Shown here piece after piece: positions 13,234-57,259 of a stretch of DNA of 64,000 nt. Source of the stretch: Candidatus Cloacimonadales bacterium (GTDB lineage Bacteria; Cloacimonadota; Cloacimonadia; Cloacimonadales; JAIOQZ01); NCBI GenBank assembly GCA_963674825.1, contig OY771587.1, positions 1,248,001 to 1,312,000 of the forward strand, given 5' to 3'. The notes under the pieces were generated by a model. That model did not search any database and was not told where the DNA came from. It worked only from the letters and a program-made list of their open reading frames with translations. The position numbers were made by a program, and so were the translations under genes. Each line of letters starts with the position of its first letter. The stretch's first letter is position 1.

Positions 13234-13377
13234 ATAATCCCCCGGAAATCAACTTCTGAATGTTGATTTTGCTCATCAATGCGCCAAGAATGGGAAGATT
13301 CCGCAAGCATGCAAGCAATTCATCGGAAAATCCTTGCCGAATTCGTTCGGGAGCCGTTTGCTGCCACTGAGGTAAAT

Positions 13378-13905
13378 ATGAACAACATTCGAAACATGGC
13401 AGATTTCCACCGCGCAATCGTCGCCCTGAAAAAGCTCCCACGCTCTGGCTGGCTGCTGAAAGGTATCCCTGGAGAAGCCTGCGAATCGGTGGCGGATCAC
13501 AGCTTCGCGACGGCCATGATGGCCTGGATGATCGCAAGAGAATACTTTCCGCAGCTCGATGATATAAAAGTCCTCCAGATGGCCATGATCCATGAACTCG
13601 GAGAGATCGGAGCCGGCGACATCACGCCCTACGACGGTGTTACTCCTGCCCAGAAACACGAGATGGAAAAGGAGTCGGTGCAAAAGGTGCTGTCACACCT
13701 TGAACGCCGAGACGACCTCTACGACCTGTGGATGGAGTTCGAGACCGGTGAGACTGCGGAAGCGATCTTCGTGCGGCGTATCGATAAGCTGGAGATGGGA
13801 TTGCAGGCTTTGGTCTATCAACTCGATCACGGCATGGACCCGGCGGACTTCCTTACCAGCGCGAAGCAGGATGACGAGATCCTTCAAGCCATCCTGGAGG
13901 TATAA
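13378..13905 (+). CDS. HD-domain hydrolase (YfbR/HDDC2-like 5'-deoxynucleotidase)
   Basis: LKKLPRSGW, ESVADHS, IHELGE...GDITP, DKLEM; GAGGT before ATG 13378. Confidence 0.88.
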   Translation: MNNIRNMADFHRAIVALKKLPRSGWLLKGIPGEACESVADHSFATAMMAWMIAREYFPQLDDIKVLQMAMIHELGEIGAGDITPYDGVTPAQKHEMEKESVQKVLSHLERRDDLYDLWMEFETGETAEAIFVRRIDKLEMGLQALVYQLDHGMDPADFLTSAKQDDEILQAILEV

Positions 13906-13912
13906 CTTACAC

Positions 13913-14012
13913 CCACGCAGCAGATTCGTTCGAGACGAGCAGCCGTGTTCATCCACTTCGAAGACGTGGTGTTATACGGCGTCGCGAGGCACCGGGCGAA
14001 TATGCGACGTGA
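13913..14012 (+). ncRNA. Candidate structured element (long interrupted hairpin), copy B
   Basis: Nested pairings CACG/CGTG, GCA/TGC, TTCGTTCG/CGGGCGAA, GCCGTGT/ATACGGC, CCAC/GTGG; homologous to 22230-22356. Confidence 0.5.
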
Positions 14013-14040
14013 CGGACATCTGTGAATGTCTCTCTCTGCT

Positions 14041-14142
14041 CCTTCCCCTTTTTCCAAAGGGGAAGGCCGGGATGGGGTTTCTCTACCCCCTCTTCCCGCT
14101 GCCCTGTCATCCCGAGTAGCAAGAGAGTGTTGGGGTGAGGGT
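14041..14142 (+). repeat. Two REP-like hairpins with GGGATGGGG / GGGGTGAGGG tails
   Basis: CCTTCCCCTTT-TTCC-AAAGGGGAAGG-CCGGGATGGGG and CCCTCTT...AAGAGAG-TGTTGGGGTGAGGG; related copies at 22367 and 38625. Confidence 0.6.
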
Positions 14143-14302
14143 CTCTCTATGTCGCCACTTCCGCTGATCGTAACACAATTAGGACAATGGAAATAAGCAA
14201 ATTGCGAAAAAAAGCTTGCCCGTATAACGTACAAAACTTTTTTCTAACAAACACGATACAACAACGACGGCTCGTGTACTGCGAGCTGAATAAGAGGTTT
14301 GA

Positions 14303-15862
14303 ATGAGTACGGTAAAAGAGAAAATCGAATTGCTGGAAAAACGAATCAGCAAAACAAAAGAAATGGGTGGTGCTGCACGCATCGAGAAGCTTCATGAAGC
14401 TGGCAAGCTGTCCGCTCGTGAGCGTATCGATTTGTTCTTCGATCCGGGTACATTCCGCGAGATCGATATGTTTGTCAAGCATCGCTCGACCAACTTTGAC
14501 ATGCCAAAACACGATATCCCTTCTGATGGCGTTATCACCGGTCACGGACTGGTTAATGGCCGCCCGGTATTCGCCTATTCGCAGGACTTCTCGTCCCGCG
14601 GTGGATCACTCGGTGAAAAGCACGCCGCCAAGATCGTCAAGATCCAGGATCTCGCCATGAAATCCGGCGTCCCGATCGTTGGCTTCAACGATTCCGGCGG
14701 AGCTCGCGTTGAAGAAGGAATCGACGCCCTCAAAGGGTACGGCGACATTTTCTTCCGCAACGCACGTTCATCCGGGGTAATCCCCCAGATCACCGCCATT
14801 ATGGGGCCCTGCGCGGGTGGCGCGGTCTATTCACCAGCCATGACCGACTTCGTTTTCATGGTCAAGAATACCAGCTACATGTTCATCACCGGCCCCAGCG
14901 TCATCAAAACCGTTACAGGCGAAGACACCACTTTTGAGGATCTCGGTGGCGCTATGGCGCACAACACCAAAAGCGGAAACGCACACTTCGCATGCGAGAA
15001 TGACCAGGATGCCATCGAGCAGATCAAGACCCTGCTCAGCTACCTTCCGAACAACAACATGGAAGACGCTCCGCGCTACGAACCGCAAGACGACCCAGGC
15101 CGCATGTGCCCGGAACTCGATTCAATGATCCCGGACAGCACGCGTCAGCCCTACGATATGAAAGACATCGTGAAATCGATCGTTGATAATGGCGAATTCT
15201 TCGAGCCACATGAATACTACGCGCAAAACGCGATCATCGGTTTCGCACGCCTGAACGGACGCGCGATCGGTATCATCGGCAACCAGCCGATGAACCTCGC
15301 AGGCTGCCTCGATATCGATGCATCCGATAAAATCTCCCGCTTCATCCGCTTCTGCGACGCCTTCAATCTTCCCATCGTCACATTCGTGGACGTGCCGGGC
15401 TACCTTCCGGGTTGCGAACAGGAATGGAACGGAATTATTCGACACGGCGCCAAGCTGCTGTGGAGCTACTCGGAAGCGACGGTTCCCAAGCTTACCGTGG
15501 TTACCCGCAAAGACTACGGCGGAGCCTACATCGCGATGAGTTCGCAGCATCTGGGCGGAGACATGATCTTTGCATGGCCGTCAGCCGAAATCGCTGTGAT
15601 GGGTGCCCAGGGCGCGGTCAACATCGTGTCCGGCTACCGTAAACGGCTCAAAGACGCGGAAAACCCCGCCGAACTGCGTCAGGAACTGATCGCCGAATAC
15701 GAAGAAGCGTTCAATAACCCATACATCGCTGCCGAACGCGGCTACATCGATGCGGTCATCCGTCCATCAGAAACCCGCGTCCGCCTGATCGATGCACTGG
15801 ATATCCTCACCACCAAAAGTGAATCGCTGCCGCCCAAGAAACACGGCAACATTCCGGTGTAA
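14303..15862 (+). CDS. Methylmalonyl-CoA/propionyl-CoA carboxyltransferase subunit (12S/MmdA/PccB family)
   Basis: DSGGARVEEG, GPCAGGAVYSPAMTD, FVDVPGYLPG, AEIAVMG, KKHGNIPV. Confidence 0.95.
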   Translation: MSTVKEKIELLEKRISKTKEMGGAARIEKLHEAGKLSARERIDLFFDPGTFREIDMFVKHRSTNFDMPKHDIPSDGVITGHGLVNGRPVFAYSQDFSSRGGSLGEKHAAKIVKIQDLAMKSGVPIVGFNDSGGARVEEGIDALKGYGDIFFRNARSSGVIPQITAIMGPCAGGAVYSPAMTDFVFMVKNTSYMFITGPSVIKTVTGEDTTFEDLGGAMAHNTKSGNAHFACENDQDAIEQIKTLLSYLPNNNMEDAPRYEPQDDPGRMCPELDSMIPDSTRQPYDMKDIVKSIVDNGEFFEPHEYYAQNAIIGFARLNGRAIGIIGNQPMNLAGCLDIDASDKISRFIRFCDAFNLPIVTFVDVPGYLPGCEQEWNGIIRHGAKLLWSYSEATVPKLTVVTRKDYGGAYIAMSSQHLGGDMIFAWPSAEIAVMGAQGAVNIVSGYRKRLKDAENPAELRQELIAEYEEAFNNPYIAAERGYIDAVIRPSETRVRLIDALDILTTKSESLPPKKHGNIPV

Positions 15863-15871
15863 GGAGGATCC

Positions 15872-16057
15872 ATGCAGCGAGAGAAGAAAATTCGCGCAGC
15901 CATCGCCGGCGTGATGATGCTCCTCGAAGAGGAACAGTCGATGCGCGCACGCGTCGAGCCGGTTCCGGTCAACGTTCCGGTTCCGTGGGCTCAACACGGC
16001 AGACGTACTATCATGCAAAATCGCGAACTACTGCAACGAAGAGTTATCAAGAGATAA
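15872..16057 (+). CDS. Small accessory (epsilon-like) carboxyltransferase subunit
   Basis: GGAGG RBS; AAIAGVMMLL...PWAQHGR pattern resembling AccE/epsilon peptides; lies between the two carboxyltransferase genes. Confidence 0.65.
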   Translation: MQREKKIRAAIAGVMMLLEEEQSMRARVEPVPVNVPVPWAQHGRRTIMQNRELLQRRVIKR

Positions 16058-16077
16058 GATAAACGGAGGATATAGAA

Positions 16078-18042
16078 ATGAAATACGATAAGCACGGGGC
16101 GCTCGAGCTCACCGAGATGAAATACGGTCAGGATCGCCCGAAAGCAGCCAATCCTGTAAAGGTACAGGATTTGACCTTCCGTGACGGCCACCAGTCCATT
16201 TTCGCCACACGTGGCAGAACCGAAGACATGCTGGAAGTCGCCGAGCAAATCGACGAAGTCGGTTTCTACTCCACTGAAGTCTGGGGTGGCGCTACCTTCG
16301 ATACCATGCACCGCTACCTCAACGAAGATCCGTGGCAGAGAATCCGTACCCTCAAGAAGTACATGAAGAAGACCCCATTCTCCATGCTGCTTCGCGGACA
16401 GAACCTCGTGGGCTACCGCAACTATGCCGACGACGTGGTGGAAGCATTTGTTCAGCGTGCCGCCGATAACGGCATCGACATCTTCCGCGTATTCGACGCG
16501 CTGAACGATTTCCGCAACTTCGAGACCGCCGTCAAGATCATCCAGAAGAACAAGAAGCACTTCCAGGGAACCATCTGCTACTCACTCACCGAACAGCGCA
16601 TGGGCGGCGACGTCTACAACCTGGATTACTACATCAATAAAGCGAAAGAGCTCCAGGCAATGGGTGCGGATTCGATCTGCATCAAGGACATGGCCGGCCT
16701 TATCGCGCCATATGACGCTTACAACCTGGTCAAAGCGCTTAAAGAAACCGTCGATGCACCGATTCACCTGCACACCCACTTCACCTCGGGTATGGGTGAT
16801 CTTTCCATATTCAAGGCAATCGAAGCCGGCGTGGATATCGTCGATACCTGCATGGCGCCATATGCCTACCGCACTTCGCACGCAGCAATCGAACCGATCG
16901 TCGTCAGCCTCCTCGGCACCAACCGCGACACTGGATTCGATATCAACTTGCTCAGCGAAATCGATAAAAAGCTCGAGAAGATAGCACCGAAATACATGCA
17001 CTACCTGGATACAACCAAGCTGTCCATCATCGACATAAACGTGATCCTGCACCAGACACCTGGCGGAATGCTCTCCAATCTGGTCAACCAGCTTCGTCAG
17101 ATGGAACAGCTCGATCGGCTCGAAGACGTGTTCGAAGCGCTGCCGAAAGTCCGCAAAGACCTCGGTCAGGTTCCGCTGGTCACCCCGACCAGCCAGATCG
17201 TTGGCATCCAGACGGTGAACAACGTCCTCTTCGACAAAGAAGAAGGCGAATACAACCGCATCACCGAGCAGGTGAAAGACCTCTGCTTCGGTCTCTACGG
17301 AAGAACACCCCGTCCGATGGACAAAGACGTTCAGGCCAAAGCACTCAAAGATTACCCGCGCGGTAGCGAGCCCACAGACGTTCGCCCTGGCGATGTCCTC
17401 GAACCTGAACTTCCCGCTGTCATAGAAGACTGCAAGGGCTTGGCCAAGGATATCGACGACGAGCTCATCGTGGCACTCTATCCCGTTACAGGAAAGCGCT
17501 TCCTGAAGTGGAAATACGGCAAGGAAGCACCGCCGAAAGACGTGATGGCAAAAACGATCGAAGAATGTGAAGCAGAACGCAAGATCGTCGAGAAAGCCCT
17601 TCGCGGCGAGATGATCGAAAAGCCGGCGAAGCAAGCTCCTCCGAAACCGGAGAACGTCCGCAGTTTCGACGTGTTTGTGGATGATGAATACTTCAAGGTT
17701 GAAATCGGGTCCGATGGCATGCCAGCAGTAGCACCGAGTGTCAAGCAGGTAACGAAACCCGCAGCACCAGCACCGAAACCTGCGCCAAAAGCCGAAGCAC
17801 CAAAACCGCAGGTTGCCGTTGCGGAAGGGCAGACCGCCATTACTGCGCCTATGCCTGGCATGGTGATCGAGTACAAGAAGCAGGTCGGCGACAAAGTCGA
17901 AGCCGGCGAGACCGTCTTGATCCTCGAAGCGATGAAGATGTATAACAACATCGAAGCCACCGTTTCAGGGACCATAAAGGAAGTTCCTTTCGGCGCTGGT
18001 GACAACGTCTCCAAGGACGCGGTACTCTGCGTAATCGAATAA
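16078..18042 (+). CDS. Pyruvate/oxaloacetate carboxyltransferase fused to biotin carrier (OadA/PycB/5S+1.3S type)
   Basis: RDGHQS, WGGATFD, IKDMAG, HTH, PLVTPTSQIVG, Pro/Ala linker, EAMKM biotinylation site. Confidence 0.95.
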   Translation: MKYDKHGALELTEMKYGQDRPKAANPVKVQDLTFRDGHQSIFATRGRTEDMLEVAEQIDEVGFYSTEVWGGATFDTMHRYLNEDPWQRIRTLKKYMKKTPFSMLLRGQNLVGYRNYADDVVEAFVQRAADNGIDIFRVFDALNDFRNFETAVKIIQKNKKHFQGTICYSLTEQRMGGDVYNLDYYINKAKELQAMGADSICIKDMAGLIAPYDAYNLVKALKETVDAPIHLHTHFTSGMGDLSIFKAIEAGVDIVDTCMAPYAYRTSHAAIEPIVVSLLGTNRDTGFDINLLSEIDKKLEKIAPKYMHYLDTTKLSIIDINVILHQTPGGMLSNLVNQLRQMEQLDRLEDVFEALPKVRKDLGQVPLVTPTSQIVGIQTVNNVLFDKEEGEYNRITEQVKDLCFGLYGRTPRPMDKDVQAKALKDYPRGSEPTDVRPGDVLEPELPAVIEDCKGLAKDIDDELIVALYPVTGKRFLKWKYGKEAPPKDVMAKTIEECEAERKIVEKALRGEMIEKPAKQAPPKPENVRSFDVFVDDEYFKVEIGSDGMPAVAPSVKQVTKPAAPAPKPAPKAEAPKPQVAVAEGQTAITAPMPGMVIEYKKQVGDKVEAGETVLILEAMKMYNNIEATVSGTIKEVPFGAGDNVSKDAVLCVIE

Positions 18043-18062
18043 TCAAGTAATGATATATAGAC

Positions 18063-18089
18063 AAGGAGGCTCGTCGAGCCTCCTTTTTT
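18063..18089 (+). terminator. Rho-independent terminator
   Basis: AAGGAGGCTC-GTC-GAGCCTCCTT plus T run. Confidence 0.9.
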
Positions 18090-18149
18090 ATCCCACATGC
18101 ACAGCCTGGCTGTATATAAAGTTTTTAAAGCTGTGATAATGAATATGAC

Positions 18150-18177
18150 TTGACACATTTGGAATCTCAGCTAAGAT
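18150..18177 (+). promoter_or_regulatory. Sigma70-type promoter TTGACA-16-TAAGAT
   Basis: Perfect -35 and TAnnnT -10 upstream of cheR. Confidence 0.55.
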
Positions 18178-18429
18178 ATCATTAGAAATAAAATGTAATG
18201 TGTCTTAGTTTGTGTATGCTTAGACCACATCGGAATAGTTAGCAACACATTGTCGTTAAGATGGTTACGTTTCCGGGGATTTCCCCTGATTACTTCTGAT
18301 GCGGCAGGAACTGCCGGTCAGCAAAAATTCGCATGATTTGGATATTGTTTATAACAGTCGAAACGAGTGTGTGATGAATAGAACCATAGAGACTTTTCAT
18401 GACGTTACAAGCTGTCTCCGGAGCGGTCG

Positions 18430-19281
18430 ATGATTTCCTCAAAGATACCGTTCGAACCGGGTGATTTCATACTTCTTCGGGAATATATCCAGAAAGAATT
18501 TGGTATTGTCGTAGGCGATGAGAAAGCACCCATTATCGAAGGGTATTTATCGAACCTCGTGGTCGAAAGCGAGTGTAAAAATTTCCGGGAATTCTATCAT
18601 AAAGCACGCACGGATACAACAGGAAATCTTCGCAATAAAATCATCGATGCCATCACCATCTACGAAACTTCATGGTTTCGCGATAACAAACCATGGGGAA
18701 TCGTTGACGAGCTGATTATTCCGCGCTTTATATCGGACATTCGTTCGGGTCGGAAGCAGCAGGTTCAGATATGGTCGGCTGGTGTATCGACCGGCGAAGA
18801 GATCTATTCGTTCGTAATGATTCTCGCCGAAGCTCTAACACGGTTCCCGATGATCAAACCGCCAACATTCAGCATTCTTGCAACCGATATCTCGCCCAGT
18901 GCACTCTATCGAGCCATATCCGGACGCTACAATCGCGAATCGATGCGCAAGGGAATGATCCCGCATTTCCGTGATCGCTACTTTACCGAAGAAAACGGGA
19001 TCAGCGAAATATCGAGAGAAGTTCGCGAGATGGTTACGTTCAGCCCTTTCAATCTACAGCTGGATTTCATTAATATACCCTCTTGCGACCTGGTTTTCCT
19101 ACGTAATGTTGCTACCTATTTCCCATTTGAGTCGAAGAAGAAGCTTTTTGAAAAGATATATCACAAAATGAATGATGATGGATATCTTATAATAGGTGAA
19201 AATGAATCGCTGGATGGTATTTCTACGAAATTCCGAAAGCACGAATACAAAAAAAGCGCATATTATATGGCAAAACGTTAG
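18430..19281 (+). CDS. cheR: Chemotaxis protein-glutamate O-methyltransferase
   Basis: ETSWFRD, IWSAGVSTGEEIYS, ILATDIS, DLVFLRNVATYF, GYLIIGENES. Confidence 0.92.
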   Translation: MISSKIPFEPGDFILLREYIQKEFGIVVGDEKAPIIEGYLSNLVVESECKNFREFYHKARTDTTGNLRNKIIDAITIYETSWFRDNKPWGIVDELIIPRFISDIRSGRKQQVQIWSAGVSTGEEIYSFVMILAEALTRFPMIKPPTFSILATDISPSALYRAISGRYNRESMRKGMIPHFRDRYFTEENGISEISREVREMVTFSPFNLQLDFINIPSCDLVFLRNVATYFPFESKKKLFEKIYHKMNDDGYLIIGENESLDGISTKFRKHEYKKSAYYMAKR

Positions 19282-19296
19282 TTGATGGGGTGGCTA

Positions 19297-19704
19297 ATGA
19301 AGATATTGACCGTCGATGACTCTCGATTGATGCGGGCGATGATACGCTGCACGATCGAAGCGCTTGGTTTTGAAGCGCTGGAAGCCTCGAACGGGTATCA
19401 GGCGATGAAAATCATGAAGAACCATTACGAAGGCATCAGCCTGATTCTGCTCGACTGGAATATGCCGGGCATCAGTGGTTACGATTTGCTTCTCAAACTG
19501 AAAGCCAACAAACTGTATCGCCATATCCCCGTGATGATGGTCACCACGGAAAGCGAATGCAAGCACGTTATAGACGCCATCCAGCATGGCGCGCAAAATT
19601 ATCTGAAGAAACCCTTTACACCGGAAAGCCTCGTCGATAAAATTGAAGAAGTCCTGGGCGGGCTTCCAAGCGAATTTTCCGACAAGGACGAACTTCAGCT
19701 ATAG
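19297..19704 (+). CDS. cheY: CheY-like response regulator
   Basis: ILTVDDS, LLDWNMPGISG, MMVTTES, KKPF. Confidence 0.85.
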   Translation: MKILTVDDSRLMRAMIRCTIEALGFEALEASNGYQAMKIMKNHYEGISLILLDWNMPGISGYDLLLKLKANKLYRHIPVMMVTTESECKHVIDAIQHGAQNYLKKPFTPESLVDKIEEVLGGLPSEFSDKDELQL

Positions 19705-19712
19705 AGGTCTAA

Positions 19713-20564
19713 ATGTATCGGAATACGATCCTGGAACGGCTATCGCGAATCGAAGAAGCGCCAACCATGCTAACCATTGCGCTGGAGATCGACCGTTTGT
19801 CGAGAAACTCCGATACATCAGCAAATCAGATCAGCAGTATCATCCGGCTTGATCCTGCCCTCACCGGTAAAGTGCTGAAAATCGCCAATTCTGCGGTTTA
19901 TGCTTCGCGCCAGCGAATTGTAAGCCTCCAACAGGCTATCGCACGACTCGGTTTCTCCGAGATTAGGAGAATCACCATTTCAATCGCGGTTATCAACAGC
20001 TTCAAGAACTTCTTTGTCGATTACGAGAAATTCTGGATCCACTCGATCTCAACCGCATACCTTGGCGTCGCGCTGCACAAAAAAGCGGTGCAGCAGACCC
20101 AAGAAGACGAGGTTTATATCTGTGGCATTCTGCATGATATTGGTGTCCTGATCATGGACCAGTACTTCACCACGATTTACAAGAAGGTCTTCGAGATTGC
20201 CGAACGGAGAAGATTCGACCTACCCATCGTGGAAGAGAAGCTGCTGGGCATTTCCCACTCCGAGATTGGCGCGTTTCTGCTTCGTAAATGGAAGCTGCCG
20301 GACACGGTTACCGATGTGATTCTCAACCACCACACACCGCAACGCGCCAAGATCAACCCGATCGCTACGCGGTTGGTTTATCTTTCCAATTTTATCTGCA
20401 ACAACCGCGGCATAGACAATGGCTGTGGGTTCTTCCCGGAAGGTTTCTACGACGACATATGGGATGAGCTGGGGCTTCGAGTGGATGAGATCCCTTCGCT
20501 TATCGATGTTGTTATGAAAGAAACACAAAAAGCAAAAGAAATTCTACGACTGGGCGGTCGATAA
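19713..20564 (+). CDS. HDOD-domain protein
   Basis: DPALTGKVLKIANS, AIARLG, FWIHS, GILHDIG, HSEIGAFLLRKWKLP. Confidence 0.92.
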   Translation: MYRNTILERLSRIEEAPTMLTIALEIDRLSRNSDTSANQISSIIRLDPALTGKVLKIANSAVYASRQRIVSLQQAIARLGFSEIRRITISIAVINSFKNFFVDYEKFWIHSISTAYLGVALHKKAVQQTQEDEVYICGILHDIGVLIMDQYFTTIYKKVFEIAERRRFDLPIVEEKLLGISHSEIGAFLLRKWKLPDTVTDVILNHHTPQRAKINPIATRLVYLSNFICNNRGIDNGCGFFPEGFYDDIWDELGLRVDEIPSLIDVVMKETQKAKEILRLGGR

Positions 20565-21382
20565 TGAATAAAGCCGTTTTTTTAGGTTTCGAAGCCAAGA
20601 CTGATTGGCAAGAGCTATATCTCGACGACGACCTGACTGCGGACTTCAAAACATGGGACGATCTCGGCGAAAACGGGATTGTTGATTACGATATCGTCGT
20701 ACTTCATCTTGAGGAGTCACAGATTGATCTCCTCCACTTCATCCGGATGAAATTCCAGTCCAAACCGGTGGTTATTGTCGCATTCCTGCTTGAAAAGGAC
20801 ATCGATGCAATCGGTGATTTTCTCATGGCGGGTGCTGACATCGCAGAAGAACTTCCAACTCACGAAGATGCCGTTGCACTTATCATGGCCCAAGCGCTTG
20901 ACATGCTCCATGTGGGTAACTTCAAGCACGATACAATGAGCAACGCACTCACAGAGACAACCGAAGAAGTCTTCACTACCATGGTACAAATGAAGGTGGA
21001 GCTGCTGGAAATTCACCACGAAGAACTCATGTTTCCGGATGATGATCTCGCCGTCATGATGCAGGTCGAAGGCAAGATGAAGGGTGTTATCCTGTTGACA
21101 TTGTCTTATGAATTTGGCGCCCAAATCATTTCCCGAATTCTTTCCATCGAACCAGAGCTTTTGTCGCACCCTGATATCGAAGAAGGCATCCTCGAAATCA
21201 TCAACATGATCGCCGGAGGTGCAAAATCCAGAATCAGCGATTTCGACCAGACCTACACACTCACCACACCCAAAGCACTTGATAACCGGAATAAACATGA
21301 CGATATTGATAAAAGAGGCACTGTCTTGCTCTTCAAGAGCGATACCGACCACCGTTTCTCAGTTTATTACCACTTCCAGTAA
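20564..21382 (+). CDS. Degenerate receiver domain fused to CheX-like phosphatase
   Basis: C-terminal EIINMIAG (ExxN) CheX/CheC motif and GKMKGVILL; N-terminal REC-like DIVVLH...AGAD. Confidence 0.8.
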   Translation: MNKAVFLGFEAKTDWQELYLDDDLTADFKTWDDLGENGIVDYDIVVLHLEESQIDLLHFIRMKFQSKPVVIVAFLLEKDIDAIGDFLMAGADIAEELPTHEDAVALIMAQALDMLHVGNFKHDTMSNALTETTEEVFTTMVQMKVELLEIHHEELMFPDDDLAVMMQVEGKMKGVILLTLSYEFGAQIISRILSIEPELLSHPDIEEGILEIINMIAGGAKSRISDFDQTYTLTTPKALDNRNKHDDIDKRGTVLLFKSDTDHRFSVYYHFQ

Positions 21383-22205
21383 CCGTCGAATCCACAGCTT
21401 CCTCCTCGTCATCCTGATCGCTCTAGGAAGCATGCTCTTCGCCGACGAATACACAGCTCAAATCGACTCCCTGCGGCTGGAGATCATCCAGCGCGATGTT
21501 CCCGCAGAATGGTTTGATAGCCTCGTCACTCACGAGAATTTCAAGATATACCCCTCCATGAACGACTACTTCGAGCGTATGGCCGAACACCGTGTTGACC
21601 ACAAGCAGGAGAAGGATTTCGACTGGTACCTTGATTTCTTTGGTGTGCCGCGGAAGATCGAATTGGGAACCGCCTTCATCGAGGAAAACCGTGAGATTTT
21701 GGAGAAGGTGGAAGCGCTGAATGGTATCCACTACGAACTGGTGGTGGCGATTATCGGTATGGAGACCAACTTCGCGCAGAAGCGTCATCGTGGTAACTTC
21801 CACACCTTCAATACGCTCGTCTCCCAGTACGTCCTCATGCCCCGCAGGCGAAAGTTCGCCGTCCGCGAAATCGAATCGCTCTATAAATTTGCACAGCGTA
21901 CCGATCGCGATGTGTGGGAGTTTGTCGGATCGTTTGCCGGAGCCGCAGGATGGGGGCAGTTCATTCCGTCATCCATGCAGAGCTTTTTCATTGATGCCAA
22001 CGACAACGAGAAAGATATCGATATCTTCTCCGTGGACGACAACCTCTTTAGCATCCAGAACTACCTCAACAAACACGGCCTCAATCGGGACAATATCGGC
22101 AGTCGAGACGCACGTTACAAAGCCGTTTACGCTTACAATCACAGCGACGCCTACGTCCGCGCCGTACTTTACATCTACGAACACCTGCACGCGAAACGCC
22201 AATAG
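21219..22205 (+). CDS. Lytic murein transglycosylase (MltB/SLT_2 family); true start uncertain, about 21366
   Basis: VAIIGMETNF, GSFAGAAGWGQFIPSS, AVYAYNHS; signal-peptide-like RRIHSFLLVILIALGSMLFA. Confidence 0.88.
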   Translation: MQNPESAISTRPTHSPHPKHLITGINMTILIKEALSCSSRAIPTTVSQFITTSSNRRIHSFLLVILIALGSMLFADEYTAQIDSLRLEIIQRDVPAEWFDSLVTHENFKIYPSMNDYFERMAEHRVDHKQEKDFDWYLDFFGVPRKIELGTAFIEENREILEKVEALNGIHYELVVAIIGMETNFAQKRHRGNFHTFNTLVSQYVLMPRRRKFAVREIESLYKFAQRTDRDVWEFVGSFAGAAGWGQFIPSSMQSFFIDANDNEKDIDIFSVDDNLFSIQNYLNKHGLNRDNIGSRDARYKAVYAYNHSDAYVRAVLYIYEHLHAKRQ

Positions 22206-22229
22206 CATCCGCTCGTAAACACCCATATT

Positions 22230-22356
22230 CCGCCCAGTAGATTCGTTTGATTGCGACCGCATGCGTGGTGTTCCGCGACTTAATTCCCGTGTCCGATAGC
22301 CAGAAAGTCGCGGTATATCCACGCAGTAGGGAGCAAACGGACGAAGATACGGGTGG
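22230..22356 (+). ncRNA. Candidate structured element (long interrupted hairpin), copy A
   Basis: Nested pairings CCGCCC/GGGTGG, GTA/TAC, TTCGTTTG/CGGACGAA, TGCGTGG/CCACGCA, CCGCGACTT/AAGTCGCGG; homologous to 13913-14012. Confidence 0.55.
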
Positions 22357-22366
22357 ATGCCATATA

Positions 22367-22407
22367 CCCTCTCGCCCATGTCAATTGGTGAGGGATGGGG
22401 TGAGGGT
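22367..22407 (+). repeat. REP-like element with GGGGTGAGGG tail
   Basis: CCCTCTCGCC...GGTGAGGG-ATGGGGTGAGGG. Confidence 0.55.
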
Positions 22408-22479: not shown

Positions 22480-23682
22480 ATGGACATACAAAAACAGCTT
22501 GATATCATCAAGAACGGCGTCGAGGAGATCGTCCCCGAAGCCGAACTCAAACAGAAGCTCATCCTGGCGGAGAAAGAGAACCGTCCGCTGCGCGTGAAGA
22601 TGGGAATCGACCCCACCGGTACCGATGTGCACATCGGGCACATGGTCCCCGTACGCAAGATGCGAGACTTCCAGGACATGGGGCATACTGGCGTGATAAT
22701 CATCGGTGATTTCACCGCCCGTATCGGCGATCCCACCGGTCGCGACGAATCTCGTCCACCGCTCACCGCCGAGCAGACCAAAGCCAACGCTGCCACCTAC
22801 ATGGAGCAGCTTTATACCGTGCTTGATAAAGATAAAACCGAGATCCGCTGGCAATCCGAATGGTTTGAGGGTCTAAATCTCGCCGACGTGATCAACCTGC
22901 TGGGTAAATTCACCCTGGCACAATTCCTGGCCCACGATACCTTCCGCAAGCGCTACGAAAACGGCCTTCCGCTCGCCATGCACGAGCTCATGTACCCGGT
23001 TCTTCAGGCGTACGACTCCGTAGCGATCGATGCCGATATCGAGCTTGGTGCTACCGAGCAGAAATTCAACCTTCTTTGCGGACGCGACATGCTGCGCTAC
23101 TTCGGCAAGCCTGAGCAGGTCGCCATCATGTTCCCCATTCTCCTTGGCACCGATGGAGTGAACAAGATGAGCAAGAGCATGGGCAACTACGTCGCCGTAT
23201 TCGACAAACCGTCCGACAAATACGGAAAAGTCATGTCAATCCCGGATGAAATCATCCTCAACTACTATAAATACGCTACACGCCTCACGCCACAGGAGAT
23301 CAAGGAGATCGACAATCAGCTGAAATCTGGCGACAACCCGAAATTCATCAAGCAACGTCTGGCGCGCGAAATCGTTAAGCTCTACGACGGGGAATCAGCC
23401 GCCCTCGAAGCAGAAGAAGAATTCAACCGCGTGTTCAGTCAGCGCGATATCCCCACCGATATCGAGGAATTCGTGATGGAGGAACCCATCTGGATCGTGA
23501 AGCTTCTTACCGATACCGGATTATGCCAGACAAACGGCGAGGCCCGTCGTATGCTGAAACAGGGTGCTGTTAAGCTCGACGACGAAAAGGTCGATGACAT
23601 GGATCTGAACCTCAGCGTTGATCGCGAAACCATTCTCAAGGTGGGAAAACGTCGTTTCCTGAAGCTGGTTCCAAAGGAGTAG
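22480..23682 (+). CDS. tyrS: Tyrosine--tRNA ligase
   Basis: GIDPTG..HIGH, YPVLQAYDS, KMSKS, C-terminal S4 domain (KVGKRRF). Confidence 0.97.
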   Translation: MDIQKQLDIIKNGVEEIVPEAELKQKLILAEKENRPLRVKMGIDPTGTDVHIGHMVPVRKMRDFQDMGHTGVIIIGDFTARIGDPTGRDESRPPLTAEQTKANAATYMEQLYTVLDKDKTEIRWQSEWFEGLNLADVINLLGKFTLAQFLAHDTFRKRYENGLPLAMHELMYPVLQAYDSVAIDADIELGATEQKFNLLCGRDMLRYFGKPEQVAIMFPILLGTDGVNKMSKSMGNYVAVFDKPSDKYGKVMSIPDEIILNYYKYATRLTPQEIKEIDNQLKSGDNPKFIKQRLAREIVKLYDGESAALEAEEEFNRVFSQRDIPTDIEEFVMEEPIWIVKLLTDTGLCQTNGEARRMLKQGAVKLDDEKVDDMDLNLSVDRETILKVGKRRFLKLVPKE

Positions 23683-41582: not shown

Positions 41583-41610
41583 TTTCGTTTTGACTGCGTC
41601 AAAGCCGAAA
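41583..41610 (-). repeat. GNA-triloop hairpin repeat (TTTCGGCTTTGAC-GCA-GTCAAAACGAAA)
   Basis: Same motif as 53612, 53686, 57260, 57334; starts 1 bp after the stop codon of 41612..44362. Confidence 0.85.
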
Positions 41611-41611
41611 A

Positions 41612-44362
41612 TCATTGAATCATCAACATTTTACGCGTCGAGATATAGTCATCCGATTTCATGCGATAAAGATATATTCCTGAGCCGACTTGCTTACCGG
41701 ACACATCGTCGCCAAGCCACTGTACCTTATGCGTTCCATCGCCTACCTGGCCATCGAGCAACGTACGGATGAGCTGCCCCTTGAGGTTGAATACCTCGAT
41801 GGTTACGTGTCCGGATTCTTTCAGCGAGAAGCTGATCTCGGTAGAAGGATTGAACGGATTGGGATGGTTACCCAGTAGCTGTGTCAAAACGTCCGCATCC
41901 GGTACCTGACCGGGCTCGTCGTCACTGACAACCGTCACTTCGATCGGGCCGTACAGCTCGCTGTGCCCCGCTGCGGAAAGCGATTCCAGCCAGTAGTAGT
42001 ACGTCGATTCATACGCGACATCCTGATCTGCATATTCGTAGTTGGTCTCGGTCGCCTGATTCTGCGCCAGGATAAGCCCCGGATTGACGCGCACAGCTTC
42101 GTCCGTCAGGCAAACATCCGCGCGCAGAAGGTTGTAACCCAGCATATCGCTCTCGGACTGGCTTATCCACCGCACGACCACTTCGTTTTCGTCTGCGACG
42201 GTCGCGGTGAAGGATGATAACTGCACGGGAAGCGTTACCTCGAGCCACTCGGAGTTGCTGCCGCCATTTCCGGCGGAAGGCGTGATGGCTTCGCTTGTTG
42301 CGCTGGCGCTGATCCAGTTGGATGCCGAGGTTACGCCTGCATCGCTGCCGCTCGTGTAATAGACAGCGGTCGATGATCCCGGCCGAATCGCGGTGAAAGC
42401 GGGGTCATTGCCCTGATCCCAGTCGTGCACAGTTGTGCGGCTTACGCCGTCTGCCAGGATGGGATTATCGGTGCTGGTCGAATTGGAAAAGCCGGTCCAG
42501 GTTTCGTTCACAAACAAACTGGAAGCTGTATGCGGTGCAACGACATGCTTGTTGCCGTCGCCGGTTACAATCAGATCGTCGTCCGGCAGCACGGTATCGC
42601 GATCATAGCCGTTATAGACCACGATCACGGTTCCTTCAGGAACGGAACTCCACGGTGAACCTGCGCCATCCAGGAAGCTGAAGAATACATCGCTATCGTC
42701 GGAAAGCGTCCAGCCGCGCATATCGAGGTTGTCCTGCACCACAACGATTTCCACCCATTCCTTGCTGCCATCCGCGCCCTGCGACCACTCGTTGATAATC
42801 GCCGCCATCTCGGTGCTTCCACCCGCGGTTCCATTACCAGTCAGTGTAATTTCCAGCGTGGAAGCGCCTGCCGAAACGCATTGCAGATTCGCGTTGTAGC
42901 TCTGCTCAGCTCCAGGCGTAAAGCGAATGTAGATACGCTGGTTAAGCGACTGCCCGGAAGGACTCAGGATAAGCTGATCGGTATAGCCAGATCCGCTGCT
43001 TGCCGAAATCTCGAAGTCTGCCGGTGCGCTTACGGTCACATCATCGACCAGATTACTACCGGTGATGTCGAAATATACCTCATCGGAAGCCTGCCCGATG
43101 GTCACATCGCCGAAATCGTGCGCTGTTGGATTCGCGGACAGAGTTGGCGTTCCCCAGATATCCCATACGTATTCGGGATGATCGATGAAGGGATTGCGGT
43201 TGTGCTGATAGCTATCGTAGATAAGCTGATTGCGGGTTTCTTCCGCTGTAGAGACGGGATCTTCGGCGTGCCATTTCAGCAGGGTTGTGAGCTTTCCGTG
43301 CTCGCCCAGCAAGTCGCCTGTATCGGGATTGTCCGTATCGATCGCGTCCACCAGTTCCAGGTCGACCTCACCGTTATCGCCTTCGTAACGTACGGCCATA
43401 TAGAACATCATGCGCGCCACATCACCTTTGACCGCGTCTGGCGGTTCCCAGGTGTCTGTAGTCCAGTAGCAATCAGTCGCGCCGTCGCCATCAATGTATT
43501 CGTTTCCACCTTCCGCAAAGTCGCGATTGAGCTTCATGGTGTTGACGGTAGAATCTTCCGGTCTCAGGTGGTGCAAGTCGGTTCCGGGATATTCGTCGAT
43601 ATCGAAATTGCCATGGGATTTTGCCCAGACATGCTCGCGGTTCCAGCCATTGGAAGTATTAAAATTGTCTTTGGCGATCGACCAACCGGTGTAGATGCCG
43701 ATCACATTGTTCGAGTTCTCGGGATCTTCATCCAGAACCTGCAGCGCGACTCTTACTCCATCGTAGTCGAAAAAGGTATGCCCGTCGATGATATTGTGCA
43801 GCGCAGCTTTCAGCGCGGAGCCGGTCAGACCCGCAGCCGCCTCGTAGTATTCGCCGAAGTCCGTCATCACGATGTCGTCGATGTTACCGCGCTTGTCGGC
43901 TGTTCCAGAGGTAGCGGTAATCCGCACCCGGATATCGCCGGTCATGTTAATATCAGCACTCCAATAGGTAAGAGTACTTTGGAGGTTCGAGTTGAAATCG
44001 ATTCCGGCCTGTATCCAGTCGGTACCGCCATTGGTGCTGTACTCAACGCGGAAGGTCGGTGCGGTGCTGTCAGTACCGTATTTCGCGTAGTAGAGCGAAA
44101 TGGTCCCGATTCCACCGGATTTATCGGCCAGCATGGTCATGGAGCCGGCAGTCTTGATCCTTGCCGACTTCGTACCATTCTTTTTATCGTTGTCCAGCGT
44201 GCCAATCAGGGCGTTGTTCATGTTCCAGGAAATGCCGCTCAGTGTGACATCGCCAGTAGTATAAGAGGTCTTGCTTTCCGCTTCGAAATTCACCACATAA
44301 TCGGCGTTCAGACCGCCAACCAGCATCATAAGACAGAAAAATAACAGTATCGTTTTTTGCAT
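41612..44362 (-). CDS. Secreted endonuclease I family nuclease with Ig-like, lamin-tail and FlgD/T9SS-like CTD domains
   Basis: WNREHVWAKS, TDLHHLRP, KGDVARMMFYMAVRY, NRNPFIDHP; IINEW..EWVEI (LTD); TLPVQLSSF; NHPNPFNP...RKMLMIQ. Confidence 0.92.
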   Translation of the reverse strand: MQKTILLFFCLMMLVGGLNADYVVNFEAESKTSYTTGDVTLSGISWNMNNALIGTLDNDKKNGTKSARIKTAGSMTMLADKSGGIGTISLYYAKYGTDSTAPTFRVEYSTNGGTDWIQAGIDFNSNLQSTLTYWSADINMTGDIRVRITATSGTADKRGNIDDIVMTDFGEYYEAAAGLTGSALKAALHNIIDGHTFFDYDGVRVALQVLDEDPENSNNVIGIYTGWSIAKDNFNTSNGWNREHVWAKSHGNFDIDEYPGTDLHHLRPEDSTVNTMKLNRDFAEGGNEYIDGDGATDCYWTTDTWEPPDAVKGDVARMMFYMAVRYEGDNGEVDLELVDAIDTDNPDTGDLLGEHGKLTTLLKWHAEDPVSTAEETRNQLIYDSYQHNRNPFIDHPEYVWDIWGTPTLSANPTAHDFGDVTIGQASDEVYFDITGSNLVDDVTVSAPADFEISASSGSGYTDQLILSPSGQSLNQRIYIRFTPGAEQSYNANLQCVSAGASTLEITLTGNGTAGGSTEMAAIINEWSQGADGSKEWVEIVVVQDNLDMRGWTLSDDSDVFFSFLDGAGSPWSSVPEGTVIVVYNGYDRDTVLPDDDLIVTGDGNKHVVAPHTASSLFVNETWTGFSNSTSTDNPILADGVSRTTVHDWDQGNDPAFTAIRPGSSTAVYYTSGSDAGVTSASNWISASATSEAITPSAGNGGSNSEWLEVTLPVQLSSFTATVADENEVVVRWISQSESDMLGYNLLRADVCLTDEAVRVNPGLILAQNQATETNYEYADQDVAYESTYYYWLESLSAAGHSELYGPIEVTVVSDDEPGQVPDADVLTQLLGNHPNPFNPSTEISFSLKESGHVTIEVFNLKGQLIRTLLDGQVGDGTHKVQWLGDDVSGKQVGSGIYLYRMKSDDYISTRKMLMIQ

Positions 44363-50992: not shown

Positions 50993-53611
50993 ATGAAACA
51001 AAAAGGATTTATTCTCGTATTCATCCTTTTATGCAGCATCGTCAGTATATTCGCTGACTACACAGTGGACTTCGAAGCTGAAAGCAAGGGTTCCTATACC
51101 GCTGGTGAAGTTATTCTCAACGGTATCAACTGGAACCTCGACAACACTCTGATCGGCAACCTTTCCAATGACAAGAAAAATGGCACCAAGTCTGCACGTC
51201 TCAGACACATTGGCGCTATGACAATGCTTGAAGATAAGTCCGGTGGACTCGGAACCATTACTTTCCAGTATGCGAAATATGGTACCGACTCTGTTGCTCC
51301 AACTCTTCGCGTTGAATACAGCACCGATGGTGGCGCAAGCTGGATTCAGGTCGGAACAGACTTCGACACGAACACCCAAGCTGCTCTTACCGAATGGAGC
51401 CAGGAAGTCAACGTTGCCGGAAACGTACGTATTCGAATCACGTCCATCTCCGGAACTGTCGGAAAACGCGCGAATATCGATGATATCGTTTTGACAGATT
51501 ACGCTTCTTCTACCGAGTCCATCACAACCGGCGCAGTATCAACTGCACCGTTCAATCCTGGCAGCACTGGTTCTGTTGCGTTCACATCAAGCGGTAACTT
51601 CACTGCTGGCTGTGTTTTCTCCGCAATGCTTTCCGATGAAAACGGTGCTTTCGCAAGCGCGACTGAGATCGGAACCTACGTACTGGCAGCAGACGAAACC
51701 GATCCTTCCGGTTCGATCAACTTCACAATCCCGACTCCGATTACAGGTAGCGAAGATTACGCAATCCGCGTAGAATCCGATACCCCCGCGGTTCTCGGCG
51801 ATGAAAGCGCAAATTTCACCATAAACGGTGTAACTGTCACGCCTACCGACGCCCAATATCTTATCGTTGGTCAAGCCTTGACTCCCCTCTTTTATAATAT
51901 CGTTGGAAGCGCTTTAGACGGACAATGGTGTATCTCTGATGTTAGCGGTGGTCCCTATACCCTAACAGGTATAAATAGCAATCCGATAAACGGTGTAATG
52001 TCAACTCCAGGAACAGGTTATCTTGTGTTTGCCGCTGTATTCAATGAAGGTGTTATCTATAGCAATGAGGTTTTGATCGTTGTGACCGACGCTCCGACAA
52101 TTCCTTACCACGAAGACTTCTCGACCTTCCTTCCCGCAGGCTGGCAAAACAACAGCAACTGGTACAGCAGCAATTCAAGCTACGCTGGTGGTGTCGCTCC
52201 TGAAGCAACCATCGGCTACAGCACATATGCTGTTGGCGATAACCTCGTCTCCTGCCCGATCAATACATCCGGTTACACATCTCTGGATGTCAGCTGGTGC
52301 CAGAGCATCTCTACCTATTCAGGTGGAACCGGCGGCTTCCAGCTTGATCTTTACACCTCTACCGATGGCACGACATGGGGCAGCTCCGTTTGGACCTACC
52401 TCTATACTGGCGCTAACGATACTGCAAATCAGCAGACTACCATCGATGCAGCCGATGGTGTTGGAAGCTCAACCCTTTATCTGAAGTTTGAATTCACCTC
52501 TCAGGACAACAACCGTCTCTCTTTCTGGAATATCGACGAACTGATCGTGAAAAATTCCGCTCAAGAGCAGAATACACAGTCTGTTACCGCTGGCGACAGC
52601 AATGTCGATTTCGATTCACCGAACACGGGTATCGGCATCCAGTTCACCGGTATCGATACCGGTGGTAATGTAACAGTCGGTTTCTTCAATGAAGGCCCGA
52701 TCAACACCAATGGTATCACCGATGCCAATGTCGCGGTTTACCGCTGGCTTATCGATCCGGATTATACATTCGCATTCGGAACCGGCACAGCCACCATCGT
52801 CATCTACCTCGACAACGTTCCGCTTAACGGCGTTTCCGATCCCGCAAACGTCCACGTATGGCATCGCAGCGGCGAATATGAAGACTTCACCCTGATCGAT
52901 CCAGGCAGTGTTGTTTATGTCGAAGCAGAAAACGCGCTTTATGTTACGGTCTCCAGCTTCAGTGAATTCGTGTTCGGTAGCGACACACAGACCCTGCCGG
53001 TCGAATTGTCAGGATTCCAGGCGACTTACACCAGCTATGGATACGTCACCCTCGAATGGACGACCCAGTCTGAAAGCGACATGCTCGGTTACCGCGTACA
53101 TCGCAGCAACAACGATCAGCTCAGCCAGGCTCAGATGATCTCTGCTCAGATGGTTGAAGCTTACAACAACTCCGCCGAAACCATCTACAACTTCGACGAT
53201 ACCGATATCGAACTCGAAGCAACCTACTACTACTGGATCGAAGCTGTCGAACTCAACGGCTCCTCGATCATGTACGGACCAACCTCCGTTGTTGTCAGCG
53301 ACGACAACCAGGAAGGCGATACTCCGGAATATGCTACAGCCATGCCGCAGAACTCGCCGAATCCGTTTAACCCGACGACCACCATCCAGTTCTCGCTGAA
53401 AGACGATACATTCGTCAGCCTGAAGATCTACAACACTCGCGGTCAGCTCGTTAAGACCCTCGTCAACGAAGACAGACTCGCAGGTGAACAGGCTCCGATC
53501 GTCTGGAACGGTACCGACGAAAACGGAAATAACTGTGGTAGCGGTGTTTACTTCTACAAGCTCGAAACCAACAACAAGACCATCACGCGCAAGATGATGA
53601 TGATCAAGTAA
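50993..53611 (+). CDS. Secreted multidomain beta-sandwich protein with FlgD/T9SS-like CTD
   Basis: AAGGAG before ATG 50993; N-domain paralogous to 41612..44362; MAM/adhesin-like segment; SFSEF..TLPVELSGF; NSPNPFNP...RKMMMIK. Confidence 0.88.
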   Translation: MKQKGFILVFILLCSIVSIFADYTVDFEAESKGSYTAGEVILNGINWNLDNTLIGNLSNDKKNGTKSARLRHIGAMTMLEDKSGGLGTITFQYAKYGTDSVAPTLRVEYSTDGGASWIQVGTDFDTNTQAALTEWSQEVNVAGNVRIRITSISGTVGKRANIDDIVLTDYASSTESITTGAVSTAPFNPGSTGSVAFTSSGNFTAGCVFSAMLSDENGAFASATEIGTYVLAADETDPSGSINFTIPTPITGSEDYAIRVESDTPAVLGDESANFTINGVTVTPTDAQYLIVGQALTPLFYNIVGSALDGQWCISDVSGGPYTLTGINSNPINGVMSTPGTGYLVFAAVFNEGVIYSNEVLIVVTDAPTIPYHEDFSTFLPAGWQNNSNWYSSNSSYAGGVAPEATIGYSTYAVGDNLVSCPINTSGYTSLDVSWCQSISTYSGGTGGFQLDLYTSTDGTTWGSSVWTYLYTGANDTANQQTTIDAADGVGSSTLYLKFEFTSQDNNRLSFWNIDELIVKNSAQEQNTQSVTAGDSNVDFDSPNTGIGIQFTGIDTGGNVTVGFFNEGPINTNGITDANVAVYRWLIDPDYTFAFGTGTATIVIYLDNVPLNGVSDPANVHVWHRSGEYEDFTLIDPGSVVYVEAENALYVTVSSFSEFVFGSDTQTLPVELSGFQATYTSYGYVTLEWTTQSESDMLGYRVHRSNNDQLSQAQMISAQMVEAYNNSAETIYNFDDTDIELEATYYYWIEAVELNGSSIMYGPTSVVVSDDNQEGDTPEYATAMPQNSPNPFNPTTTIQFSLKDDTFVSLKIYNTRGQLVKTLVNEDRLAGEQAPIVWNGTDENGNNCGSGVYFYKLETNNKTITRKMMMIK

Positions 53612-53711
53612 TTTCGGCTTTGACGAAGTCAAAACGAAATGGTCGAACGATGTGACTTCGCGAAGAGAAGTCATGTTAGTGGAACATCGGCTTTGACGTA
53701 GTCAAAACGAT
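53612..53711 (+). repeat. Three-hairpin array (GNA-triloop repeat, spacer hairpin, GNA-triloop repeat)
   Basis: TTTGAC-GAA-GTCAAA; TGACTTC-GCGAAGA-GAAGTCA; TTTGAC-GTA-GTCAAA. Confidence 0.85.
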
Positions 53712-56800: not shown

Positions 56801-57259
56801 ATATACCTGAATGAAGAGATCTATGCTGAGCTGGATGCCGATCAACAGCAACTCGTGATAGAGGATATCGCAGGTGGGACGTATCATTTCGCAGCAACAT
56901 ATCTCTATAATACTGGAGAATCGGATCCCACAGAAATCGAGGTTGTGGTAGTGGGTAACGACCCCGGCTTCGTTACCTATAATACAACGCTCTATAGCAA
57001 CTCGCCGAATCCGTTCAACCCGACGACCACCATCCAGTTCTCGCTGAAAGACGACACATTCGTCAGCCTGAAGATCTACAACACCCGCGGTCAGCTCGTT
57101 AAGACCCTGGTCAACGAAGACAGACTCGCCGGCGAACAGGCTCCGATCGTCTGGAATGGTACCGACGAAAACGGAAATAACTGTGGTAGCGGTGTTTACT
57201 TCTACAAGCTCGAAACTAACAACAAGACCATCACGCGCAAGATGATGATGATCAAGTAA
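53846..57259 (+). CDS. Secreted multidomain protein, diverged paralogue of 45472..48870 carrying the CTD of 50993..53611
   Basis: Collinear motifs (PDHFMSGI, ITNTGDA, LYCLNGN, DLNGDG, VTTNSEDDP); last 86 aa identical to the upstream gene. Confidence 0.88.
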   Translation: MSKLIIVLAMLMSGLLLADFTIVESYPLPDNAYCAASDEEGNLFINTYDETGVSVLQFNPADSSAVLVFTSMITNASDMTWDGNRNCFWMIDQSENPNEPALAKAFNMQGDQIHCHEQPDHFMSGITCEGAIFYILTYDNPDGYVYEKEINYECITNEFELPANQPCGVCIANNYLWITDVDENLIFKVSRYDGTVMDSFPSLGSNPTGITFDGEYIWYIDKDIYGECWLHKVDLGQLIPIAEFSSESYDYGNVIINQSAYASIEITNTGDAPLIFSQIYSDSDSPLGMDISDWYLPPGYTGSIQFSLLLGHLGEYSSNVFLESNDSQCPSRTFPLTAYGLNLTQDIDCTPVIEFSDVRATSLTSRKLRISNQGIDNLTIYNIELSNDVVSLEYNEPFPISISTRDTLDVRLWLNTNDATEPTCDIYVFSNDIDEPIVTIPIEISIIPFDDEIGSQYWSFLANGSGEAITALMKFIDLNGDGKSEVVVSDSDHHLYCLNGNGSDQADVIWSINFEDYGYGGGSIVHERNLIIVDDVNQDGIDDIGVGTDRPNCAVYILDGRTGNMIWSHYSSEFSMFSFPVGSLDSRRDFNGDGCKDVLAVWYDNLPDCNIPIVLYDGITGSPIWMSESDFYATKQAISISDQNNDEIPDVVAIRSLYNYSELCVISGENGVVLETYSSQHELGNLIELKDVSGEGLNDFMFTISNTDFASIFAMRCDLGTLWDYFIVQSAVTGLEKATEAGSEYIIPVLSTSDEGIVLNASSGEEMISYPLSGETFVSSPIRDINGDGHFDILNGNSDHQIQAYSGSNGFLIWDDTMDALVLKAIDISDLDSNNSNEMLLGLCNGTIVCLSGGINASAPMASVQLNVTTNSEDDPIGAEYLLIGPDSFSGEIPSGGSVLIDNVPLGTYNLLVTKSQYDDILIENLIVEEDIIEDLLLIETISPVENFRAQLDGGNLILLWGNARTRANKDNREDMLSRDRLSTRIYLNEEIYAELDADQQQLVIEDIAGGTYHFAATYLYNTGESDPTEIEVVVVGNDPGFVTYNTTLYSNSPNPFNPTTTIQFSLKDDTFVSLKIYNTRGQLVKTLVNEDRLAGEQAPIVWNGTDENGNNCGSGVYFYKLETNNKTITRKMMMIK

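Follow-up and report, generated by a model that had tools for sequence, protein, structure and literature searches.

The closest described systems to the repeat considered here are the attC sites of integrons, the repetitive extragenic palindromes (REP, REPIN and BIME) and their RAYT proteins (HUH Y1), the enterobacterial repetitive intergenic consensus, or intergenic repeat unit (ERIC/IRU), the miniature transposable elements with inverted repeats (MITEs) of the IS5 family and the bcr1 repeats of the Bacillus cereus group. The attC sites carry terminal AAC/GTT triplets. Their folding strand lies mostly on the leading-strand template, according to the available part of one report (PMC5371416), while a GTAG or GTGG tetranucleotide at the foot of the stem defines a REP in the accessible portion of another (PMC6006769). 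The mover of ERIC is not known, and the available text of a 2007 review treated the spread of such palindromes as open (PMC2229807). The stretch of DNA analyzed, the window, comprises the 64,000 nucleotides from 1,248,001 to 1,312,000 of the single-contig, 3.89-Mb genome of a Candidatus Cloacimonadales bacterium (G000). It contains two long imperfect hairpins, copy A (13913..14012) and copy B (22230..22356), which an earlier note had assigned, from the letters of the window, to a dispersed, structure-selected family of RNA or single-stranded DNA (ssDNA) elements.

The family was confirmed, with 39 copies scattered over the genome, a genus-wide range, covariation beyond both controls and no match in Rfam. 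The element is multicopy, covarying, strand-specific and modular, is gained and lost at orthologous sites, is polarized by replichore and not by genes, and makes no target duplication. The reading we favor, with some confidence and definite reservations, is that it is a non-coding repeat of the genus that spreads as folded ssDNA at the replication fork and is moved in trans by a putative strand-transfer protein that would read its boxes.

Both hairpins were found where the earlier note had placed them, on the + strand, and in both the folding strand is the lagging-strand sequence. In copy A, which is of the short type (T1), the 5′ arm of an outer box (13922..13933, + strand) pairs with its 3′ arm (13993..14005, + strand) with G.T pairs and an internal loop; the inner box is in flipped order (13945..13977, + strand), with 13945-13956 paired to 13966-13977 and a C-GAA-G tip at 13959-13963. 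In copy B, of the long type (T2), the outer box arms on the + strand (22239..22250 and 22338..22350) pair with each other, and the inner box with a covarying tip stem and loop occupies 22265..22322 (+ strand), where 22265-22272 pairs with 22314-22322 and the tip is C-GATA-G at 22294-22299. With RNA parameters, the + strand folded at -41.4 kcal/mol (z -3.2) for copy A and -65.1 kcal/mol (z -8.2) for copy B, values matched by 0/200 shuffles, and the - strand folded less well (-34.3, z -1.7 and -49.3, z -4.5, respectively). With DNA parameters, the z-score was -1.8 for copy A, equaled by 10/200 shuffles, and -5.3 for copy B. The covariance models of Rfam 15, which include T-box, SRP, group II intron and ribozymes, gave no match at the gathering threshold (the best E-values were 0.57, for the REP that follows copy A, and 1.1). 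A 13-bp competing pairing (22205-22217 with 22348-22360) does exist, with two G.T pairs; it belongs to the second copy and is no family trait. Nor is the preceding ACACCCA a trait of the family, since flank conservation stops about 10 nt beyond the stem.

The family in G000 was built with BLAST, paired motifs and three profile hidden Markov models, which gave 61 clusters at E up to 5; the 39 with E <= 1.5e-5 were retained and the 22 with E >= 0.054 discarded. There are 12 copies of the short type T1, 16 of the long type T2 (124-131 nt) plus one degenerate copy, and 5 of a short type, T3, whose inner box runs in the opposite order. Four more copies, one of them broken, have additional hairpins at the tip, and one copy has no inner box. 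The outer box has the consensus AGATTCGTTCGA ... TCGGGCGAAGATGC in all types and was also found in two foreign lineages. The inner box consists of two strands closing an internal loop, and its GTGGTGTT strand comes first in T2 and T3 and last in T1. Because the inner box is flipped between T1 and T2, the inner helices of copy A have no position-by-position homology with those of copy B. Two of the compensatory differences that the note had cited between the two copies thus compare different helices; the covariation itself is real and was demonstrated within types.

In a MAFFT alignment of the 16 T2 copies of G000, 96.3% of the cells pair and 20/39 pairs have changed on both sides, a level reached by 0/500 shuffles, while slid structures pair at 29-50%. 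An alignment of 65 rows from four genomes agrees with this result, with the limit that it was fitted to the model and leans to it. At pairs with a Watson-Crick majority, there were 106 G.T against 17 A.C. The stems between the boxes are free in sequence and keep their pairing; in both boxes, the positions with mismatches or wobble pairs do not change. A caveat that the note lacked is that covariation in DNA palindromes can reflect template-switch correction as well as selection.

The copies in G001, another genome of the genus, separate constant from variable parts. The spacing of the boxes was 24-26 nt in 48/49 copies, while the tip ranged from about 16 to 117 nt; 19 copies have the canonical tip, 18 a short unique loop and 12 a long tip, one of these being a parsing slip. 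The long tips contain another repeat family that is free-standing in G000. Over 46 rows, the arms of a stem correlate with each other (r 0.3-0.87) and adjacent stems do not (r about 0), a pattern that fits either stem exchange between folded copies or repeated rewriting by template switching of the kind treated in the available text of PMC8794818. The genes flanking the copies share no function. The family captured in the tips also occurs elsewhere: the ends of two large genes of the window share a 300-nt block at 97% identity, after which this repeat follows as a tandem hairpin array (53351-53710 and 56999-57360; also 41590-41612), and tandem 83-nt repeats related to it lie 5′ of a TetR-type gene (L172, G003 C4 about 956.7-957.0 kb; L148), with four units in G003 and one in G002.

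Further homologues, for which the note had proposed a search, exist in G000 and in all three other genomes of the genus (G001, G002 and G003), with at least 93 copies in G001. A covariance model found none in 97 other genomes of the order, and a pattern search gave no real match among 228 other genomes of the phylum; three single pattern matches in other Cloacimonadota were dismissed because they had no score with the model. One exact-pattern scan of GTDB gave 33 matches, all within three Cloacimonadales assemblies. A viral scan with the outer pattern returned one match, dismissed as lying inside a coding sequence, and blastn against plasmids and phages returned none. The element is a real dispersed hairpin repeat, and no description of it was found in the literature searched, which left aside subscription papers on ERIC and bcr1; the supplement of a MITE census of 183,000 genomes (PMC11602168, a source available in part), also outside the search, may list it.

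The most distinctive property of the family is its orientation relative to replication. The origin of G000 was placed by the turn of the GC skew at 1.656 Mb and by dnaA at 1.658 Mb. The folding strand is the lagging-strand sequence in 37/39 copies (p 3e-9), and of the two that point the other way, one is degenerate and one lacks the inner box. With a crude gene caller, by which 51.5% of the genes of G000 are leading, 17 copies lay between convergent genes, 9 and 8 between tandem genes in either sense and 5 between divergent genes. The polarity holds across all four contexts and is kept by 11/13 copies that are antisense to the 5′ gene. The position after a + strand stop codon, which the note had remarked on, is correct for copies A and B and does not extend to the whole family, in which 26/39 copies follow a gene of the same orientation. 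Two REP families of this genome, counted as solo copies, had no bias (6 vs 9 and 27 vs 37). The polarity recurred in G001 (71/93, p 3e-7; own dnaA, terminus placed opposite) and, in 400-kb stretches assigned by skew, in 9/9 copies of G002 and 15/19 of G003 (24/28 together, two matches split by a locus edge being counted once). Strand-specific deamination was ruled out, by inference, as the cause because the asymmetric boxes, and not the G.T pairs, set the orientation.

Comparison of orthologous sites showed that the copies come and go. Among 57 copies in the relatives, 16 had both flanks syntenic in G000 and 41 could not be placed in synteny. The 16 corresponding sites in G000 were empty in 12 cases, two of them with large unrelated gaps, and filled in 4, which represent 3 sites, two carrying a different type. 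At the site of copy A, G001 is empty and the HD gene abuts the next promoter with no insert, while in G002 and G003 a short copy lies behind the HD gene and the 3′ gene is different. At the site of copy B, G002 has no copy and G003 has a different one behind the same stop codon; it lies 32 kb on the low side of dnaA, runs opposite to the gene and is lagging by position. G003 also has a near-identical pair of copies 3.8 kb apart, one of which is absent from G002, and this points to recent copying. Flank logos and a duplication test revealed no terminal repeats, target duplication or TA ends in 108 copies of the genus. The copies are embedded, together with other repeats, in mosaics that turn over block by block, often with RAYT-type REPs just 5′. 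Enrichment at synteny breakpoints was not supported (6/23 vs 21/141, p 0.22), and the idea that tip loops guide copies to their own flanks was unconvincing (5/49 with a rank p <= 0.04).

The tips bear on whether the hairpin works as DNA or RNA. The loop was parsed in 31/33 short copies and was C-GAA-G in 26 and C-GGA-G, C-GCA-G, T-GAA-A, C-GTTA-G and C-AAA-G in one each, so that 30/31 have a G-N-A or G-N-N-A loop closed by a base pair. In the long copies, 63/65 tips were C-GRTA-G, with a pyrimidine where an RNA GNRA loop needs a purine. The loops are thus of the DNA type (C-GNA-G, C-GRTA-G) and not RNA GNRA loops, and mini-hairpins with GNA or GNNA loops are far more stable as DNA than as RNA, according to the available part of PMC13037366. 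With DNA parameters, the folding strand was the better one in 37/39 copies. The polarity and the DNA-type loops together suggest ssDNA as the working form. Where the note had left RNA and ssDNA side by side, these results favor ssDNA, and the replication polarity is an addition to it; a structured RNA is less likely.

The element resembles several of the systems introduced above and belongs to none of attC, REP/RAYT, MITE and ERIC. Like ERIC/IRU, which is about 127 nt, it is an intergenic, strand-specific, imperfect palindrome with covarying stems, G.T pairs and a basal TTC/GAA box of similar look; unlike ERIC, it has no TA ends and has a different core, and 13 ERIC copies of K-12 had no clear replichore bias (9 vs 4, relative to the origin and terminus of that strain). 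Like REP, REPIN and BIME sequences, the copies are non-coding hairpins of the ssDNA type in intergenic mosaics, gained and lost without target duplication, whereas they lack the GTAG/GTGG 5′ foot, are three to four times longer and are polarized by replication. The likeness to attC is one of apparent working only: two boxes whose spacing is fixed, a strand defined by unpaired positions, a free terminal structure and a folding strand on the leading-strand template, with one pair of copies bracketing a foreign antisense gene. Unlike attC, the copies are dispersed among housekeeping genes with no cassette array, no integron integrase exceeds the cut-off and the AAC/GTT triplets are absent. A relative in Synergistaceae has the IS5-like ends and 4-bp duplications of IS5-family MITEs, whereas the copies of the genus have neither and G000 has no DDE_Tnp_1 match. 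In the available description of bcr1 (PMC3184786), that repeat is likewise lineage-restricted and mobile-looking, with compensatory changes, and differs in its 5-bp flanking repeats, two-arm fold and transcription.

The bracketing pair (L040:2051-3526; G000 444744-446218) consists of two directly repeated short copies, both preceded by a RAYT-type REP, on either side of a low-GC antisense open reading frame (ORF) of 313 aa. The ORF has no Pfam or NCBIfam match and, from its motif by eye, is presumably PIN-like; at this place G002 and G003 have one long copy and no ORF.

Beyond the genus, a metagenome scan yielded 44 loci, 41 of which have the outer box around a different core, with one core motif in 39/41; one locus could be typed, by a DnaA whose best named relatives are in Synergistaceae at about 80%. 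In these Synergistaceae-like contigs (L184-L225), the element is a fully self-complementary MITE of about 181 bp, with ten whole copies and many others that have lost one or both ends. Its ends share 10/16 letters with those of E. coli IS5, and 6/10 whole copies have identical 4-bp flanks. Its polarity, 23 vs 18 by skew, is uninformative on such short contigs. A viral contig (L259:1850-2030) has the same IS5-like ends and a TTAA duplication around a different hairpin interior; this element scored weakly, at 20 bits, with the ERIC model. Two further matches of the same sequence (L213, L227) fold poorly and were dropped. One locus, L226:240-350, which adjoins MurF-like and EstV-family lipase genes, combines the outer box of the family with an ERIC core. 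It scored 31.8 bits with the family model, a value biased by selection on the pattern; a model built from 13 E. coli ERIC copies gave it 27.1 bits (E 1e-4). When its core was aligned with that of ERIC, the score beat 1998-2000 of 2000 shuffles. The ERIC model on 31 loci of G000 gave at best 12.6 bits (E 0.77), and the reverse test was also negative. As neither the family model nor the ERIC model matches the other family, this single bridging element is all that the link rests on. Direct sequence likeness to the ERIC ends was considered and was not significant.

A search for the mover covered the main enzyme families. G000 has no reverse transcriptase (RT); RTs exist in three relatives, with no copy within 1.5 kb of their loci, and an RT-like gene of G001, with a copy some 3 kb away, contains an internal stop and likewise lacks a copy within 1.5 kb. 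Neither DDE_Tnp_1 nor IS110 had a match in G000. Its three Y1/RAYT genes (L132:900-2110, L133:1270-2080, L131:1240-1440) are each flanked by arrays of their own short palindromic repeat, no family copy was seen flanking a Y1 gene, and Y1 and DUF559 had no match in G001, the genome with the most copies. A search for Y2 (IS91) found nothing, with its controls silent too. The three tyrosine recombinases of G000 (XerC-, XerD- and prophage-like, one scanned as the catalytic domain only) scored 78-115 bits against a TIGR02249 cut-off of 265, and no integron integrase exceeded the cut-off. The note had suggested looking for copies beside a nuclease or transposase gene. Among 58 loci chosen for enzymes, for ERIC or as controls, the model matched at one, a G001 copy beside an IS4-like transposase; the hairpin there is not part of the insertion sequence and is outside its duplicated target. 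There was no recurrent partner gene among 531 flanking ORFs. Mosaics made of several repeat families are unusually abundant in the genus, and G000 has an integrated element behind tRNA-Thr, with integrase, excisionase-like and replication-like ORFs (L180:6420-10740, about 1.796-1.801 Mb), and a selenocysteine tRNA.

In the mechanism we propose, the working form would be a folded single strand at the replication fork. A putative protein would read, in the two boxes, the positions that are unpaired or in wobble pairs, the stems would serve as spacers, and copies would exchange whole stems and tips among themselves. The polarity would most likely arise by loss, copies that have their folding strand on the exposed template of the lagging strand being cut out or recombined, as with attC; alternatively, it may reflect biased insertion into the nascent lagging strand. 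The best label would be a non-autonomous ssDNA hairpin element of the ERIC/REPIN kind with attC-like anatomy, likely a small parasitic element.

Several observations weigh against this interpretation, 1) no tested enzyme family tracks the element, 2) no parent of kilobase size or with coding capacity exists among the 93 G001 copies, none of which could hold a gene because the longest spans 343 nt between the arms, 3) neither excision nor any insertion event was seen in contigs aligned to the window, which drop rare variants, and a single A-B joint in contigs has whole-genome depth and matches another paralogue, 4) the exact ends of insertion cannot be fixed because the intergenic mosaics turn over as blocks, 5) the bias is weaker in G001, where 22/93 copies point the other way; 17 G001 copies are in stretches picked for discordance, 9 of them discordant by local skew too, and at the G003 counterpart of copy B the local skew is near zero and does not confirm the replichore, 6) the ssDNA transposons IS200/IS605 prefer the other strand, in the part of PMC3971601 available, and 7) RNA parameters yield stronger z-scores for the fold than DNA parameters do, the mean difference between the strands as DNA is only 3.3 kcal/mol, and the loop counts overstate their independence since copies share ancestry.

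Among the alternatives, the one that survives best, unlikely as we hold it to be, is that the hairpin is the left-over core of an IS5-type MITE without its terminal repeats, whose stems are kept by template-switch correction and whose polarity results from passive deletion where the strand that folds better is on the lagging template, with no box-reading protein. The same outer box inside the 181-bp Synergistaceae-like element, with its IS5-like ends and 4-bp flanks, argues for it, and template switching can create and maintain stems, according to the available portion of PMC8794818. Yet near-identical young copies appear at new sites although none of the 108 copies has terminal repeats or a target duplication, and correction alone would erase the fixed mismatched and wobble positions of the boxes. 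The IS5-like ends also enclose an unrelated interior, so that ends and hairpin are separate modules, and a strand difference of 3 kcal/mol is small for a polarity of 37/39.

Marginally less probable is a retro-mobile structured RNA, or small ribozyme-like RNA, inserted by reverse transcription for which the nascent leading strand serves as primer; the same polarity would result. The strong RNA folding, the G-U pairs, the conserved internal loops and the RTs of three relatives are in keeping with such an RNA, and En-independent group II intron insertion uses nascent strands. Against these stand the lack of an RT in G000 and of copies near the RT loci of the relatives, the DNA-type loops, the free replacement of the tip and the silence of Rfam.

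We give very little credence to host chromosome signals along the replichores, such as hairpins for restart or priming on the template of the leading strand, maintained because they benefit the host. The polarity would suit them, and mini-hairpins occur at ssDNA priming origins in the available text of PMC13037366; the positions differ between species, however, the copy number varies from 39 to at least 93, the element was not found in the other genera of the family searched and the copies sit among other selfish repeats. Least probable of all are cis-regulatory RNAs, terminators or stability elements of the 5′ genes, for although the co-oriented 5′ genes and the 17/39 copies in convergent gaps, against 98/854 background gaps, would suit them, 13/39 copies are antisense to the 5′ gene, 5 lie between divergent genes, the neighbors share no function and the same site holds the opposite orientation or nothing in relatives. 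Incidental effects on mRNA may occur.

The surroundings of the two copies in the window were as the note had described them. Copy A follows a gene for an HD-domain hydrolase (13279..13905, + strand) and copy B a gene for an SLT_2 transglycosylase (21219..22205, + strand), with that of tyrosyl-tRNA synthetase (22480-23682) on the 3′ side of copy B; all three provide context only. A REP of the CCCTC/GGGGTGAGGG type lies behind each copy. Behind copy A, two REP-type palindromes (14041..14141, + strand) comprise a CCCC-type (14041-14077) and a CCCTC-type (14086-14141), the latter with a short insert from a third repeat family; they are neighbors in the repeat mosaic and lie outside the copy A hairpin. 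The CCCTC-type REP behind copy B occupies 22367..22406 (+ strand).

A broader proposal, which we advance as speculative, is that the family belongs to a class of protein-free, fork-polarized ssDNA hairpin replicators assembled from swappable modules (IS-like ends, outer box, inner box and captured tip), read by a putative host or mobile enzyme, with an outer box spanning Cloacimonadota, Synergistota and an element with an ERIC core. If no enzyme emerges, the family would be one more lineage-specific repeat. As it stands, it is a warning for structured-RNA scans that a DNA element, too, can show strong covariation together with G-U pairs. The family also offers three testable features not usual in repeats of this kind: a replication polarity that is nearly complete, an anatomy of two boxes and free spacers, and loops specific to DNA. 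If such a class of modular replicators does exist, the genus would offer a tractable route to the mechanism by which ERIC-like repeats spread.

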